NCBI GenBank assembly: GCA_000004695.1
Contig: CM000151.3
Location: 2,688,001 to 2,752,000, forward strand
From: Dictyostelium discoideum
Lineage: Eukaryota
DNA: 64,000 nt
Direction of reading: 5' to 3'
Shown: positions 27,892-64,000 of the stretch, piece after piece
Layout: each line of letters opens with the position of its first letter
Position numbering within the stretch: the stretch's first letter is position 1
Program-made: the position numbers and the translations under genes
The notes under the pieces: generated by a model
The model's input: only the letters and a program-made list of their open reading frames with translations
What the model was told of the DNA's origin: nothing
Databases searched by the model: none

Positions 27892-29923
27892 TTATAAATT
27901 ATTTAAATATAAATTTTTAATATCTGTATATATTTGTTGACTTTCAAATACATGATCAGGTAATTTAAAATTATTATCATTTAAAAATTTAGAAATGATT
28001 AATCTTTGGATTTTACCACTTTTAGTTTTTGGTAATTGTTCAACAATTATTATATGTGTTAATTGAGCAAATTTATCAATATCTTGTGTGATGATACTAT
28101 TAATTTCATTTTTTAATTGAATTAAGTCGACATTTGAATCTTGTTGTTTTAAAGTTAATAAACCAATTGGTTTATTATAACAATCTGGATTGTAAATACC
28201 AATTGAACAACATTCAATAACATTTGGATGTTTTAAAATTGATGTTTCAATTGTGTTTAATTGAACTTTATTACCACCAATTTTAATTTGATCATCTGCT
28301 CTTGAAACGATAGCATAATATCCATTTTCATCTTTATAACCTAAATCACCACTACTATAATAACCTGGGAATTTTGTTAAAACTTTTTTAAATTGTTCAT
28401 CATTTTTATAAAATGTTGAAGCGAATCCAGGTGGTAATGGTAATTTGAATACGATTTCACCAATTTGATTCACTGGTAATTCAATACCATCTTCTGATAA
28501 AATTGATGGGTAGACAAATGGTGATGGTGGACCAACTGTGTTGTATGGATTTTTTTTTGATTTTATGTAATCGAATAAATACAAATAACCAGTTTCAGTT
28601 TGACCATATCCAATAGATGGTCTTGATTTTAGTTTGTTTTCAATATATTCTGGAATTGAATCTTCAATAACTTCACCACCATTCCAAATTGATTTTAAAC
28701 TTGAAATATCATATTTTGAATGTATTTGTTTTGCATCTGGATCAACTTTATTTAAATATCTTATTGTTTTTGCTAATGTTAGAAATGCACTAACTTTATG
28801 CTTTTCAACAATTGACCAAATATCATCTTCCATATGTTTTGGTTTTACAATTCCACCTTCAAACATCACAAATGAACATCCATGTAATAATGAAGCATAC
28901 AAAAATGAATGAAACGATACCCATCCTATACTAGTATGAGAAAAGAAAGTAGTATTTTTTTGAACAATTGATGGCCAAAGATAACCAAAACAAACTAAAT
29001 GTGGACCATTACTTCTAACAACTCCTTTTGAATTACCAGTTGTACCACTTGTATAAATAATGTAAAGTGGATGACTTGATTCTACTGTAACATATTCATA
29101 GAATGGTGTTTGATTGTTTTCTTTAATTTTGTTGATTTCCAAGTCCCAATCCAAAGAAGATGGTACAGTAGGTATAGTTTCAATTATTGATAATTGTGCA
29201 TCGGAACTAATTAAATCTCTATTATGTGTAATTACATGATCTGGTTTAAAAGTTGATATTTCAATTGCTTCAATTAAATTTGGTGTAAATGTAATAATTT
29301 CCTCATTTAAAATACCATAATTTGAGGTAATAATAACTTTTGGTCTTACAGCTTCAATTCTATCTATTAAACTTTTTGTTGAATAGCCATCGAATAGTAC
29401 ACAATGAGTTGCACCAATACGAGCACATGATAACATTGCAATTGGTGCTTCAACTGTATTTGCCATAAATATTAAAATATTATCATTTTTTGAAATATTT
29501 AAATTTAAAAGTACTCTTGAAAATTCACATACTTTTTCATATAATTGATAATAAGTTAATTTAACAGTTTTCTTTAAAAATGGACATTCATAAATTAATG
29601 CGTCTTGATCTCTTTTTAATGGATTTTGAACTTGAATATCTAAAACATTATAACATGTATTTAATTCACCACCTTTAAACCAATCTGGATACATTTCATC
29701 ACCACTATAAACTTTATCATACATTTTATCCCTTTTTTTTTAAATTATTTATTGGTATAATTGGAATTTTATTATATTTTTTAAATTATTAATAATTTAT
29801 TTTACAAAATTTTTAAACTTACCAATGTATATATTTTTTGGCAATGTCATCCCAAAATGAAACAGGTTGGGATTCTGCATATTTTAGATCATTTTCATAA
29901 TCAAAAGGATCACTTAATTTCAT
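27892..29923 (-). CDS. ACSS3/PrpE-like short-chain acyl-CoA synthetase (AMP-binding superfamily), paralog A; exons 29923..29823 and 29731..27892
   Basis: Exon 1 encodes MKLSDPFDYENDLKYAESQPVSFWDDIAKKYIHW (the AcsA/PrpE N-terminal 'FW.E.AK...W' motif). Exon 2 gives (W)DKMYDKVYSGDEMYPDWFKGGELNTCYNVLD.., YTSGTTGNSKGVV (A3), GYGQTETG (A5), GDLGYKDENGYY..SRADDQIKIGGNKV (A7/A8), and LPKTKSGKIQR (A10 catalytic Lys). Donor GTAAGT; acceptor AAAAG|G. The exon 1 / exon 2 junction is in phase 2. Confidence 0.85.
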
Positions 29924-30099
29924 TTTTTTCCAAAATTATTTTAATAAAATAAAATTAAAAAAAAAAAAAAAAAAAAAAAAAGTTTATTAATCTTTTTTTT
30001 TTTTTTTTTTATTTTATCGAAGATTTTTTTTTTTTTTTTTGTCAAAAAATCTTAATAAAAATTAATCAGCAAATTTAAAAAAGAAAAAAATTGGTCTGA

Positions 30100-30450
30100 A
30101 ACTCTTTTAATTGTTTTCTTTAAAAATGGACATTCATAAATTAATACATCTTATTCTCTTTTTAATGGATTTTTAATATGAATATCTATTAAATTATAAC
30201 ATGTATTTAATTCACCACCTTTAAACCAATCTGGATAAATTTCATCACCACTATAAACTTTATCATACATTTTATCCCTTTTTTTTTTTTTTTTTATTTA
30301 TTATATGTTAAAATTTGTTTTTTTTTTTTTTTTTTTTTTTTTTTGTGAAGTGCATACCAGTGAGCTTCGTCCCAAAATTAAATTGGATTAATTTGAGAGA
30401 AATTGTAATCATTTTCATAATCAAAAGGATCACTTAATTTAAACATTTTA
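30100..30450 (-). pseudogene. 5' remnant of an ACSS3-like paralog (exon 1 plus the first ~55 codons of exon 2), carrying stop codons
   Basis: The reverse complement encodes MFKLSDPFDYENDYNFSQINPI*FWDEAHWY and MYDKVYSGDEIYPDWFKGGELNTCYNLIDIHIKNPLKRE*DVLIYECPFLKKTIK, after which homology ends abruptly. Confidence 0.7.
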
Positions 30451-61385: not shown

Positions 61386-62962
61386 CAAATTATTAATTAA
61401 TTATCCATATTTTTTGGATTCTATCCTTTTTTTATTTTTTATCACCACTAAAGAGATATTCCTTAAAAAAAAAAAAAAATAGAGAAAATAAGGAAAAATA
61501 GATAAATTTTTTTAAATTTTTTTTTCTTAAAAAACTGCAAATAAAAATAAAAACTAGACTGTTTGGTTATTAAAATGAATATTTATTTATATTTTTAAGA
61601 TTTTTTTTTATTTTTTTTTTTTCAAAAGATATGAAAAAATTTTGATCAGTAAAAAAAAATTTAACAATTTAATTTTAAAAAAATAATTATAAAATCCCAA
61701 TCTAAGCAATGAGAAAGATATAAAATAATTTGTTTTGTTTTTAATTCAAACAATGAGAAAGATATAAAATGATTCTATTTATATTTAATTTTTTTTTTTT
61801 TTTTTTTTTTTTTTTTTTTTTTTTCTTTGGACTCCATTTTATCTAGGCATTTAATTAGACAAAACTTAAATAAAGATAATTACAAAAAATATATGAATGA
61901 AAATTTTTAAAACCCTATAGATATTGGGCAGATATGATAATTTCAAACCTTTTTTTAATTTAAAAAAAAAAAAAAAAAAATATCTTGCACGGGAAAAAAA
62001 AACCTAGTAAAATGTTAAATTATTTAAAAAAAAATAAAAATTCTTATATTTTAATATTTTTTATTTAAATATTTATTGTACACCCATTATTTTTTATCAT
62101 TTTATTATAGTTTTTAATAATCTACAATATATTAAACTATAGTTTAATGTTTTAAAAAATGAGAAATTTCAATAGTATTATTTCCTATTAATTGTTGTAT
62201 ATTATTAAATTATAGTTTTATGTTTTAAAAAATGAGAAATTACAATAGTAAAATTTCTCACAATATGGTAAATCAATAAATTTTTTATAATTTAATGACA
62301 AATTAATATTCAATTCTAATTAAATAATATAAGATTTTTTCAATTTTTAATTTATTAAAATATATTTTTTTTATGGCCAGATTCTTTTTAATTATTTTAT
62401 GATAATTTAATAATAAAGTGTGATTAATTATTAATTAGAAATTGATATTAGTTTATTAAAAATTTTATTATATAAAAATATTATCTAACAAACAATAAGA
62501 ATTTTTTTTTTTTTCATTAGAATTTTTGCACTTTCCCAAAAAATTCTCCATATTATTTTATTTATTTATATTTTTTATTGCGACATTAATTTCTTATTTT
62601 TTTTTATTATGAATTATGGTATATGTAAAAAAAAGTAGTAGGAATAAATTTGGAGATTTTAAATAAACCTTTTTCATGTATCTTTTAAATAATCTTAATT
62701 GAAATTATTAGTGGACATATTTTTTTTATTTAATTTTATTCATTTCATAATTCTAGTTTACTCACTTTTTGTAATTTAGGATATTCATAATATGAATAAT
62801 TTTTAATGACGGGTGCAATAAAATTTATTTTTATGTATAAATTTTTTTTTTCCATGATTTAGTATTATTAATTTTTTTTTTCTTTTTTTTTTTTAATATT
62901 TCATTTGTATTTTATTATATTTAATTTTTCATTTTCATTTTATTAAATAATTAAAAACAAAT

Positions 62963-64000
62963 ATGTATAAACTTAGTGATCCTTTTGATTATTTAAATGA
63001 TAACAGTTATTCAAATTCTAATCCAGAAGCTTTTTGGGATGAGGTTGCTAAAAAGAATGTTTTTTGGTAAATATATATCTTTTTTTTTCTTTGTTAAAAA
63101 AGAGATATTAAAATTAAAACAAAAACTAAGATTTTTAAAAATAAAAGGGAAAAAATGTATGATAAAGTTTATAGTGGCGATGAAATATATCCAGATTGGT
63201 TTAAAGGTGGTGAATTAAATACATGTTATAATTTATTAGACATTCATATTAAAAATCCTGCTAAAAGAGATCAAGATGCATTAATTTATGAATGTCCATA
63301 TTTAAAGAAAACAATTAAATTAACCTATTATCAATTATATGAAAAAGTATGTAAATTTTCAAGAGTTCTTTTAAACTTAAATGTTTCAAAAAATGATAAT
63401 GTTTTAATATTTATGGCAAATACATTAGAACCATTAATTGCAATGTTATCATGTGCTCGTATTGGTGCAACTCAATGTACATTATTCGATGGTTATTCGG
63501 TTAAAAGTTTAATAGATAGAATCGAAACAATTACACCAAAATTAATAATTACAACAAATTATGGTATTTTTAATGACGAAATCATTACATTTACACCAAA
63601 TTTAAAAGAAGCAATTGAATTATCAACTTTTAAACCAAGTAATGTAATTACTCTATTTAGAAATGAAGTTTTGGATGAAACAAAATTAAAAAAAGTTCAA
63701 AATATTCCAACTATTCCAAATACATTAAGTTGGTATGATGAAATTAAAAAATTAAAAGAAAATAATCAATCACCATTTTATGAATATGTACCAGTAGAAT
63801 CAAGTCATCCATTATATATACTTTATACAAGTGGCACAACTGGTAATACCAAAGCTGTTGTAAGAAGTAATGGTCCGCATATGGTTGGTATTAAATACTA
63901 TACATTCCGTAAAGAATCAGATATACCTCAAATTGTATTTTCAAATGCAAATATTGGGTGGGTATCATTTCATGGTTTCTTTTATGGTTTATTATCTGGA
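62963..64000 (+). CDS. ACSS3/PrpE-like acyl-CoA synthetase paralog K (partial, runs off the window end); exon 1 at 62963..63066, exon 2 from 63148
   Basis: Exon 1 (MYKLSDPFDYLNDNSYSNSNPEAFWDEVAKKNVFW, donor GTAAAT) and its intron are nearly identical to those of J. The visible exon 2 is more than 95% identical to J (MYDKVYSGDEIYPDWFKGGELNTCYNLLDIHIKNPAKRDQDALIYECPYL..). Confidence 0.8.

Follow-up and report, generated by a model that had tools for sequence, protein, structure and literature searches.

A cluster of acetyl-CoA-synthetase-like (asl) ligases on Dictyostelium discoideum chromosome 2 with a substrate pocket predicted to accept acids larger than propionate

The region at 27.9-64 kb of the window (the whole stretch of 64,000 nucleotides that was analysed) on chromosome 2 of D. 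discoideum AX4 probably represents the main cluster of asl (acetyl-CoA-synthetase-like) ANL ligases, cytosolic enzymes whose sequences point to acids larger than propionate as substrates. The residues which confer acetate or propionate specificity on Acs and PrpE are replaced in asl. Individual paralogues may activate differing acids larger than propionate (medium-chain, branched or other), and the activated acids would most likely end as CoA thioesters.

The array is annotated already and the family is named in dictyBase, yet it is unstudied. For A, B, D, F, G, I and J the spliced model reproduces an annotated AX4 protein exactly. Three copies, the only ones for which names were checked, carry dictyBase "asl" names and the description "putative acetyl-CoA synthetase". 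Since the family has a name in dictyBase, the array itself is no discovery. A literature search by the gene identifiers of the array found no paper mentioning them.

Organisation of the array

Using one copy as tblastn query against the window, 11 two-exon ACS-like loci and two fragments were located, with eight loci intact (A, B, D, F, G, I, J, K) and three damaged (C, E, H). A previous interpretation of this DNA made without database searches (the sequence-only reading) was right about the two-exon layout, the number of copies and the signs of birth and death, and the sequence motifs it listed were found in the copies. The 36 kb do not form a single head-to-tail array, however, but two sub-arrays of opposite orientation, transcribed divergently, A-D from the minus strand and E-K from the plus strand. 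The gap between them (39.4-45.3 kb) contains four unrelated genes (39455-45230): on the minus strand an HPP-family membrane protein (39455-40390), a CfaA_B_C family member (40893-41486) and a Lipase_3 gene (41906-43354), and on the plus strand an ORF without Pfam family match (44814-45230).

Exon 1 ends in phase 2 at TG/GT in all copies, as had been claimed, but neither the uniform length of 104 nt nor the uniform donor GTAAGT was confirmed. Its length varies from 92 to 107 nt (104 nt in all seven copies from E to K, 101 nt for A, 107 nt for B and 92 nt for both C and D), and beside GTAAGT the donors GTAAGA, GTAAAT, GTAATT, GTATGC and GTTTGT occur. The intron measures 61-102 nt, the acceptor is AAAAG/G and exon 2 comprises 1831-1864 nt. 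Protein identity between pairs is lowest for A and I (64%) and highest for J and K (97%).

In the minus-strand sub-array, A (27892-29923; exon 1 29823-29923, exon 2 27892-29731) is intact and encodes 646 aa (DDB_G0273211/DDB_G0273717). The fragment A' (30058-30446, minus strand) has an in-frame stop in exon 1 and an exon 2 reduced to 77 aa with one additional stop. B (31022-33057; DDB_G0273213, 651 aa), with the donor GTATGC, is intact. C (34019-36024) is a pseudogene in AX4 owing to a lone 1-bp deletion near 34703 leading to a TAG stop; its nearest relative is D, and wild strains have an intact version (ACTFIR_009559, ACTFIW_011938). An ACS-like remnant of 30 aa (36213-36302, minus strand) matches residues 57-86 of G, and a partial duplicate of the HPP-family gene's 3' end (36293-36888, minus strand) is 87% identical to 39213-39843. 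This piece travelled with the duplication unit that made C from D; duplicated units are 88-97% identical. D itself (37007-39011; DDB_G0273215/DDB_G0273709, 647 aa) is intact.

The plus-strand sub-array begins with E (45819-48199), assigned to DDB_G0273223 (aslO-1) from position and product length rather than sequence. It has the weak donor GTTTGT, a Gly/Ser-rich insert of 112 aa (~47232-47567) and a frameshift near 48035, by which the protein stops at 709 aa, upstream of IPKTKSGK, and loses the PKTKxGK motif; the equivalent in the wild strain ACTFIW is full-length (753 aa). F (48552-50602; DDB_G0273225, aslC-1, 655 aa) and G (50884-52904; DDB_G0273227, aslI-1, 652 aa) are intact. H (53497-55037) is a decayed G-type duplicate with an intact exon 1 and an exon 2 bearing four stops, a deletion of ~160 aa and frameshifts. 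I (55505-57522; DDB_G0273305, 645 aa) and J (58225-60240; DDB_G0273229, 644 aa) are intact. K (62963-64000), the final copy, is truncated by the window end but intact in the genome; its in-window portion agrees with annotated DDB_G0273365 (644 aa), a record looked up directly. The signs of decay noted earlier in C, H and the fragments were correct; E, an annotated and transcribed gene, is more than just a dead copy.

The sequence-only reading had raised the objection that the copy number might be an assembly artefact, an explanation that is effectively refuted already. Window positions 27004-49020 and 52243-64000 run colinear with an independent assembly, GCA_054883475.1, at 99.94% and ~99.8% respectively, therefore the array is no artefact and the copy number is upheld. 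Comparable arrays exist in wild strains and sister species, and the copies lie 3-36% apart at the protein level and therefore cannot be collapsed or duplicated reads. Apart from a difference of ~712 bp in the J-K spacer, the sole discrepancy between the two assemblies, no support for an artefact was found.

Family placement and substrate pocket

The copies contain the Pfam domains ACAS_N, AMP-binding and AMP-binding_C and sit in the Acs/PrpE/ACSS3 branch of the ANL superfamily. PrpE and AcsA are the top NCBIfam models, the closest bacterial proteins (35-36% identity) are named propionyl-CoA synthetase, and the top solved structure by sequence and fold is PrpE of Dinoroseobacter shibae (5gxd), an AF2 model of copy J (mean pLDDT 89.6) being used for the fold comparison. 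These four lines of evidence bear out the earlier placement in the Acs/PrpE branch as against long-chain FACS or luciferases. The description "ACSS3/PrpE-like" is valid for branch membership but not for orthology. Array copies were rejected as the ACSS3/PrpE orthologue, given their low equivalog scores (all NCBIfam equivalog cut-offs lie far above them, e.g. 382 bits for PrpE against a cut-off of 955); the orthologue is acsB (DDB_G0274939), a conserved single-copy gene elsewhere in the AX4 genome which UniProt labels mitochondrial.

With PrpE/ACSS3 (5gxd, acsB) the asl proteins have in common the domain set and the core motifs YTSGTTG, QTE, GD, DD and PKT(R/K)xGK. Identity is, however, just 29-38%, and asl proteins differ by Trp to Gly, by GWVSFH in place of GWVVGH(S/T) in motif A4, by R526 to Lys and by the loss of R584. 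Whereas acsB possesses an N-terminal extension, is single-copy and has its D. discoideum-complex orthologues in one 90%-identity cluster, asl lacks the N-terminal (mitochondrial) extension, is multi-copy and evolves fast. The fold is also that of Acs (Salmonella enterica and E. coli Acs, yeast Acs1), the copy J model reaching TM-scores of 0.85-0.89 against Acs structures in the adenylation conformation. ACAS_N and the equivalent of catalytic Lys609 are present in both; in asl, Gly takes the place of both V386 and W414 of the acetate pocket, and the CoA-contact residues R191, R194 and R584 are not conserved.

Each intact copy retains what ATP binding and acyl-adenylate formation require: the catalytic Lys of PKTKxGK, the hinge DD, the P-loop YTSGTTG, and the motifs QTE and GD. 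For the pocket, positions were numbered on E. coli Acs and the substrate was predicted by transferring residue positions from the Acs sequence. The gatekeeper W414 is Gly in every array copy, and it is kept as Trp in canonical dictyostelid acsB and in bacterial PrpE. V386 is likewise Gly, with copy B having Ala and copy I Ser at the neighbouring G387 (the site is also given as Gly/Ala/Ser); T311 is Ser, and G312 is Phe, but Ile in D. The gatekeeper Trp determines the acyl range, Gly being the state of medium-chain enzymes, and in Acs these changes of Trp and V386 abolish small-acid specificity (PMC10455477, PMC8383264). The "short-chain" substrate proposed before is therefore doubtful, with Gly in all copies.

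That the copies are nonetheless ordinary acetate or propionate CoA synthetases, amplified for dosage or differential regulation, is rather unlikely. The top family models, the names of the closest bacterial proteins, the top structure and the dictyBase label all speak in its favour; yet the two Gly replacements occur in every copy, the scores do not reach half of the equivalog cut-offs, and a Trp-retaining PrpE/ACSS3 orthologue, acsB, is already present. Moreover, a divergence among copies (64-91%) that is concentrated beside the pocket motifs is unexpected under dosage amplification.

The predicted acceptance of acids larger than propionate is a feature in common with the Macs/ACSM family (Macs of Methanosarcina acetivorans, 3etc), which shares with asl Gly at the Acs gatekeeper position and Lys at the Arg528 position (M. 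thermautotrophicus Acs numbering; PMC10455477). Macs/ACSM is far more distant from asl (104 bits for 3etc against 312 bits for PrpE), and 3etc aligns to query residues 229-621 only, leaving the N-terminal ACAS_N region unmatched in that search. The asl proteins arrive at a Macs-like pocket state from inside the PrpE branch. The Phe that replaces G312 could take up part of the pocket space again, as an alternative Trp does in Macs of M. acetivorans (PMC10455477).

CoA contacts and fate of the acyl-adenylate

Intact copies would bind ATP, form the acyl-adenylate and then most likely the CoA thioester. The reaction would be cytosolic, because neither an N-terminal presequence nor a PTS1 was found in the copies. 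The Acs residues in contact with the CoA phosphates are lost or changed in all array copies, which carry a hydrophobic residue or Ser/Gly at R191, Glu at R194, Lys at R526 and one of Thr, Ser, Asn or Lys at R584. Roles in CoA binding have been described for R191, R526 and R584 (PMC10455477); R194 is counted as a contact on the basis of a solved R194A mutant only. In addition, I, J and K have Tyr, Phe and Cys, respectively, in place of the conserved A8 glycine, for which a role in opening the pantetheine tunnel has been proposed (PMC10455477). With the arginines changed and this glycine lost in I/J/K, CoA thioester formation is not assured in every copy.

Some or all copies might accordingly form adenylates and use free CoA poorly, transferring the acyl moiety to some other thiol or an amine, e.g. 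a PKS carrier protein, or releasing acyl-AMP. We consider this quite unlikely overall and its case strongest for the I/J/K clade, whose members have the altered A8 position and are still under purifying selection (dN/dS 0.24-0.32). Against it, Macs of M. acetivorans makes acyl-CoA although it too lacks these arginines, since it binds CoA in another mode (PMC10455477); the residue just before the A8 position in I and J is a glycine (IG-Y, IG-F), which may compensate; neither a carrier-protein gene nor a PKS gene adjoins the array; and reading the alignment by eye revealed no FAAL-type insertion. The link to polyketide synthases suggested by the sequence-only reading likewise gained nothing from the window, in which a PKS gene was looked for and none found.

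Evolution, expression and strain variation

In a neighbour-joining (NJ) tree without support values, the entire expansion groups as sister to the lone D. purpureum gene, F/G and J/K are recent duplications, and orthogroups are common to D. discoideum, D. citrinum, D. dimigraforme and D. firmibasis. The expansion therefore appears younger than the split from D. purpureum. The family would have branched off the PrpE/ACSS3 line within dictyostelids and multiplied in the D. discoideum species complex once separated from D. purpureum. Arrays would grow and shrink by unequal crossing-over of units of ~2.2-2.9 kb, and copies would be lost via frameshifts, stops and deletions. The 5' third of exon 2 bears signs of homogenisation among paralogues: pS is halved in alignment columns 61-200, where the signal of the orthogroups is blurred as well.

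Per pair, dN/dS is 0.24-0.58, rough values given Nei-Gojobori estimation in a genome of ~22% G+C. For an enzyme these values are high, which would fit an array of mostly functionless duplicates drifting to pseudogenes by neutral birth and death, as would the damage to three of the 11 loci and to two fragments and the variation in copy number and pseudogene state among strains. We regard this as very improbable, as eight copies still have a long open frame with every core catalytic motif kept, the orthogroups are old enough to span four species, dN/dS is below 1 in every pair and at least three copies are transcribed. Transcripts of E, F and G were detected in vegetative cells and were mildly down-regulated on Klebsiella in one dataset, which lends no support to the proposed induction by bacterial prey.

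The proteins vary most in the segments on either side of the pocket motifs A4 and A5, and dN/dS is highest beside the pocket motifs. Against ~0.4 elsewhere, pN/pS rises to ~0.8-1.0 in alignment columns 271-310, 411-450 and 561-590. Values of dN/dS near 1 in the variable segments may mean relaxed loop constraint instead of substrate diversification.

Strains differ in copy number and pseudogene state, differences which unequal crossing-over, homogenisation and copy loss would explain. The wild strain ACTFIW has three F/G-type copies.

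Layout of two divergent sub-arrays

With one copy as tblastn query, 11 ACS-like ("asl") loci, here called A to K, and two short remnants are found from 27.9 kb to the window end, in a window of Dictyostelium discoideum AX4 chromosome 2 with a G+C content of about 22%. Copies A, B, C and D, the A' fragment (30058-30446) and a 30-aa fragment (36213-36302) lie on the minus strand. The plus strand carries E, F, G, H, I (55505-57522), J (58225-60240) and, cut by the window end, K (62963-64000). The two groups are divergently transcribed, and the 39.4-45.3 kb interval between them encodes an HPP-family membrane protein, a member of the CfaA_B_C family, a class-3 lipase (Lipase_3) and an ORF without family assignment. 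The sequence-only reading had described a single 36-kb tandem array. Its copies hold up, but due to the opposite transcription and the four unrelated ORFs between the groups they form two divergent tandem sub-arrays instead of one.

Exon 1 measures 92-107 nt in every copy (104 nt in E-K), with M(Y/F)KLS.PF.Y.ND....P..FWDEVAK....W as its product, and stops in phase 2 at TG|GT. It is followed by an intron of 61-102 nt with the acceptor AAAAG|G and by an exon 2 of 1831-1864 nt. Donor sites vary between GTAAGT, GTAAGA, GTAAAT, GTAATT and GTATGC, with GTTTGT in E. Annotated AX4 proteins match exactly the spliced models of A (DDB_G0273211), B (DDB_G0273213), D (DDB_G0273215), F (DDB_G0273225), G (DDB_G0273227), I (DDB_G0273305) and J (DDB_G0273229); for K (DDB_G0273365), the annotated protein itself was looked up and agrees over the part within the window. 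For most of these proteins there is a second DDB_G identifier (range 0273687-0273717), which fits a presumed duplication of this segment of chromosome 2 in the AX3/AX4 laboratory lineage; if so, the whole array is present twice in AX4.

Both the annotated proteins and an independent assembly confirm the array. Assembly GCA_054883475.1 is colinear with window positions 27004-49020 at 99.94% and with 52243-64000 at approximately 99.8%; the copy number is not an assembly artefact. Unrelated genes follow K in that assembly, therefore K is the last copy. The J-K spacer (60241-62962) contains no ACS-like remnant, no ORF of more than 72 aa and no tRNA. About 712 bp of it (60305-61033) are without counterpart in GCA_054883475.1, which reflects an indel polymorphism or else a difference between assemblies, the spacer being AT-rich. 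The array itself is not a discovery, since its genes are in the reference annotation and have dictyBase names, e.g. aslC, aslI and aslO. Within the literature searched, no main text mentions any of 12 DDB_G identifiers or bears on an expansion of acyl- or acetyl-CoA synthetases in Dictyostelium.

Family placement and active site

Array proteins contain the two Pfam domains of ANL enzymes, AMP-binding and AMP-binding_C. Scored for F, A and J, PF00501 reaches 169-195 bits (cut-off 29.9) and PF13193 48-61 bits (cut-off 24.5); ACAS_N (PF16177) reaches 61-63 bits (cut-off 27). PrpE and AcsA are the best NCBIfam models, with long-chain, luciferase-type and aryl ligase models far lower. By sequence, 5gxd (an entry for Dinoroseobacter shibae PrpE) is the closest solved structure, followed by Acs structures. 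An AF2 model of J (pLDDT 89.6, pTM 0.89) adopts the two-domain ANL fold and has 5gxd as its top structural match as well; Foldseek assigns it a probability of 1.00 to PrpE and Acs structures, and on Acs structures in the adenylation conformation it superposes with TM 0.85-0.89. Since Pfam, NCBIfam, sequence and fold matches agree, the sequence-only reading is correct in placing these proteins on the Acs/PrpE/ACSS3 branch rather than with long-chain ligases.

The array proteins are nevertheless not orthologues of ACSS3/PrpE. All scores stay below the equivalog cut-offs: 321-382 bits against 955 for NF007815 (PrpE), 275-328 against 827 for TIGR02316 (PrpE) and 331-376 against 725 for TIGR02188 (AcsA). 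The place of the orthologue is held by another gene. D. purpureum 96983, itself 49-50% identical to bacterial PrpE, reveals as query a separate conserved dictyostelid PrpE-like lineage. Its AX4 member is the single-copy acsB (DDB_G0274939), labelled mitochondrial by UniProt, which encodes 688 aa including an N-terminal extension of about 50 aa, and the acsB orthologues of the D. discoideum complex all fall inside one 90%-identity cluster. Array proteins are only 33-38% identical to the acsB lineage and to bacterial PrpE, and they have no presequence: ACAS_N begins at residue 9-15, leaving no N-terminal extension.

Mitochondrial targeting was rejected on the absence of this extension, judged by eye. 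Peroxisomal targeting was rejected likewise, as the C-termini (NNL, KNI, NVK, KIN, MKN, KNL), read by eye, fit no PTS1. From the lack of both an extension and a PTS1-like tripeptide we infer that the array proteins are probably cytosolic.

For the active site, array proteins, acsB and bacterial PrpE were aligned with translated E. coli acs (652 aa). The motifs of the latter agree with S. enterica numbering (VGW-V310-T311-GH, GS-V386-GEP, TW-W414-QTE, SGH-R526, V-R584 and SG-K609). The core motifs, namely the A3 P-loop (T/S)SG(T/S)TG, A5 QTE, A7 GD, the A8 hinge Asp and the A10 Lys, are kept in 8 of 8 intact copies (A, B, D, F, G, I, J and K), as are D500, D517 and K609 for catalysis and ATP binding; I, J and K have QSE where the others have QTE. 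Within the I/J/K clade the motif reads FGQSE or YGQSE, compared with YGQTE elsewhere.

The acyl pocket is changed. W414, the gatekeeper, is Gly in every array copy, V386 is Gly, T311 is Ser and G312 is Phe (Ile in D). Every relative in the D. discoideum complex shares the Gly at W414, as do a Polysphondylium violaceum protein, D. firmibasis 002871 and D. purpureum 92742; acsB, bacterial PrpE and D. purpureum 96983 retain the Trp. The CoA-contact arginines of Acs are not conserved either. R194, a conserved arginine for which mutants exist among the solved Acs structures, is Glu. R191 (CoA phosphate contact) is Leu, Gly, Phe or Ser, R526 (adenylate phosphate contact and stabiliser of the thioester conformation) is Lys, and R584 (CoA 3'-phosphate contact) is Thr, Ser, Asn or Lys (roles according to PMC10455477). 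G524, the A8 glycine conserved across the superfamily, lines the pantetheine tunnel and is proposed to open it (PMC10455477). Five copies (A, B, D, F and G) keep it; at this site I has Tyr, J has Phe and K has Cys, and in I and J the residue just before the A8 position is a Gly. Orthologues of I/J/K in D. citrinum and D. dimigraforme keep the A8 Gly.

The acyl range of Acs is set by the gatekeeper Trp (PMC10455477, PMC8383264), which as W414 in S. enterica or W416 in M. thermautotrophicus limits the pocket to C2-C3. Upon replacement of this Trp by Gly, Acs accepts alkyl groups with up to seven carbons and, in addition, branched acids (PMC10455477; PMC8383264). With Gly in every copy and a changed CoA-contact set, the "short-chain" label of the sequence-only reading is therefore doubtful. 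Loss of the arginines proves no loss of CoA ligation, since M. acetivorans Macs lacks them and yet makes acyl-CoA (PMC10455477).

Duplication, decay and divergence

Comparison of the window with itself reveals duplicated units of 88-97% identity: C/D (33916-36119 and 36917-39104), G/H, I/J and J/K (58133-59262 and 62870-64000; 97.4%). Between C and D, at 36293-36888, the HPP gene's 3' end recurs as a partial copy, 87% identical to 39213-39843. It was evidently carried along with the duplication of the D unit and is a footprint of unequal crossing-over. Its reading frame is broken by a stop (KSIHPPGGATALICVMSAEQC*RGFYY...).

The damaged copies differ in their degree of decay. C is disabled by a single 1-bp deletion near 34703 as compared to D, its closest relative, and intact equivalents exist in wild strains (ACTFIR_009559, ACTFIW_011938). 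E combines a weak donor site, a 112-aa Gly/Ser-rich insert and a frameshift near 48035, by which the protein stops ahead of IPKTKSGK and A10 is lost in AX4; still, E (aslO-1) is called as a 709-aa gene and transcribed. Wild strain ACTFIW has an equivalent of full length (753 aa) that keeps the IPKTKSGK motif. The insert of E (47232-47567, approximately 112 aa) consists of long (GS)n and Ser/Asn runs in place of the loop after A5, and the 753 aa of the ACTFIW protein are long enough for a comparable insert. H, a copy of the G type, carries frameshifts, four stops and a deletion of about 160 aa; A' and the remnant at 36.2 kb are fragments. In ACTFIW the F/G type is represented by three copies, compared to two in AX4, and the equivalents of E and C are intact; both the number of copies and their functional state are thus polymorphic. 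This ongoing copy-number and pseudogene polymorphism among strains is added by the present analysis.

A neighbour-joining tree (no support values) places 92742, the only D. purpureum gene, as sister to everything from the D. discoideum complex. Genes of the complex group into A, B, D, F/G and I/J/K types, a chromosome-1 pair and a further clade, apparently represented in AX4 by DDB_G0272300. Several species contribute to each orthogroup, and F/G and J/K are recent duplicates. DICPUDRAFT_92742, the sole D. purpureum relative (GL871239.1, gene 10001-12064), reads MGQTE at the gatekeeper motif and is flanked by PheRS beta, LUD-domain and SAP-domain genes. A tblastx comparison of window positions 1-46 kb with the 22-kb D. 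purpureum locus matched only the ACS gene itself, with no synteny of the flanks, so that no in-situ ancestral position can be demonstrated.

Pairwise dN/dS among AX4 copies is 0.24-0.58, below 1 and high for a metabolic enzyme. Windowed Nei-Gojobori counts give pN/pS of approximately 0.8-1.0 in three variable segments compared to about 0.4 elsewhere: columns 271-310 of the alignment (from the P-loop towards A4), columns 411-450 (directly behind A5) and columns 561-590 (a C-domain loop). The A4-A5 region of ANL enzymes houses substrate-specificity residues, e.g. those of the adenylation-domain code in NRPS. The first two hot spots are consistent with diversification of the pocket; relaxed constraint on loops would look alike. 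In columns 61-200, synonymous divergence is about half of that in the remainder of the gene, and D, G, J and K have members of other orthogroups among their nearest neighbours there; over the C-terminal two-thirds, orthologues are nearest. This suggests, though it does not prove, partial gene conversion in columns 61-200.

Taken from sequence, the best-supported reading is that the array encodes putative acid-activating ligases of the cytosol, whose acyl pocket would have opened and be diversifying, kept by birth-and-death. The new element is a concrete and testable reason against an acetyl- or propionyl-CoA synthetase label: the medium-chain-type Gly at the Trp position, the changed CoA-contact set and the variation beside pocket motifs. 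A bolder version, which we regard as unlikely, would make these genes a pocket-diversified battery of recent origin in the D. discoideum complex, in which each paralogue would activate a different non-standard acid from bacterial prey, soil or as polyketide synthase (PKS) starter, and in which the young I/J/K subclade, now lacking the CoA-contact arginines and the tunnel glycine, might have moved off CoA to acyl-AMP release or transfer to another nucleophile. If paralogue substrates truly differ, the array would offer a compact natural experiment in the evolution of ANL specificity and be a candidate for supplying unusual acyl-CoA units in a species with a very large polyketide synthase repertoire. 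Redundant short-chain ligases would reduce it to an ordinary lineage-specific tandem expansion.

Expression and neighbouring genes

Growing cells transcribe at least three of the copies: E (DDB_G0273223, aslO-1), F (DDB_G0273225, aslC-1) and G (DDB_G0273227, aslI-1) appear in Table S1 of PMC7078664, each as "putative acetyl-CoA synthetase", with AveExpr of 4.8, 2.7 and 1.1 and logFC of -0.85, -0.96 and -1.76 for K. pneumoniae versus control, respectively. Induction by bacterial prey is thus unsupported in this one dataset, where all three are lower with K. pneumoniae. A second infection RNA-seq paper contained none of the copies.

A link to PKS genes was also considered and rejected: none of the window's genes is a PKS gene, and those outside the asl family comprise fragments of kinases, a gene each for an MFS transporter, a protein with a CAP domain and a dual-specificity phosphatase, TRAPPC10, and the HPP-family, CfaA_B_C and Lipase_3 genes. 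The last three genes (39455-43354) also adjoin the array in wild strain ACTFIW. The HPP-family protein contains very long poly-Asn tracts, the CfaA_B_C (counting-factor-associated) family protein is a secreted one, and the class-3 lipase has a poly-Asn tract. TRAPPC10 (23596-27761) is multi-exon, encodes approximately 1442 aa in the other assembly and terminates 130 bp away from copy A's 3' end. Further upstream, beyond TRAPPC10, lie the protein-kinase fragments, the MFS transporter and the phosphatase gene, which is of the rhodanese/dual-specificity type. The ORF at 5104-6711, with a weak CAP-domain match, contains internal tandem repeats (5542-6166) that are about 70-78% identical.
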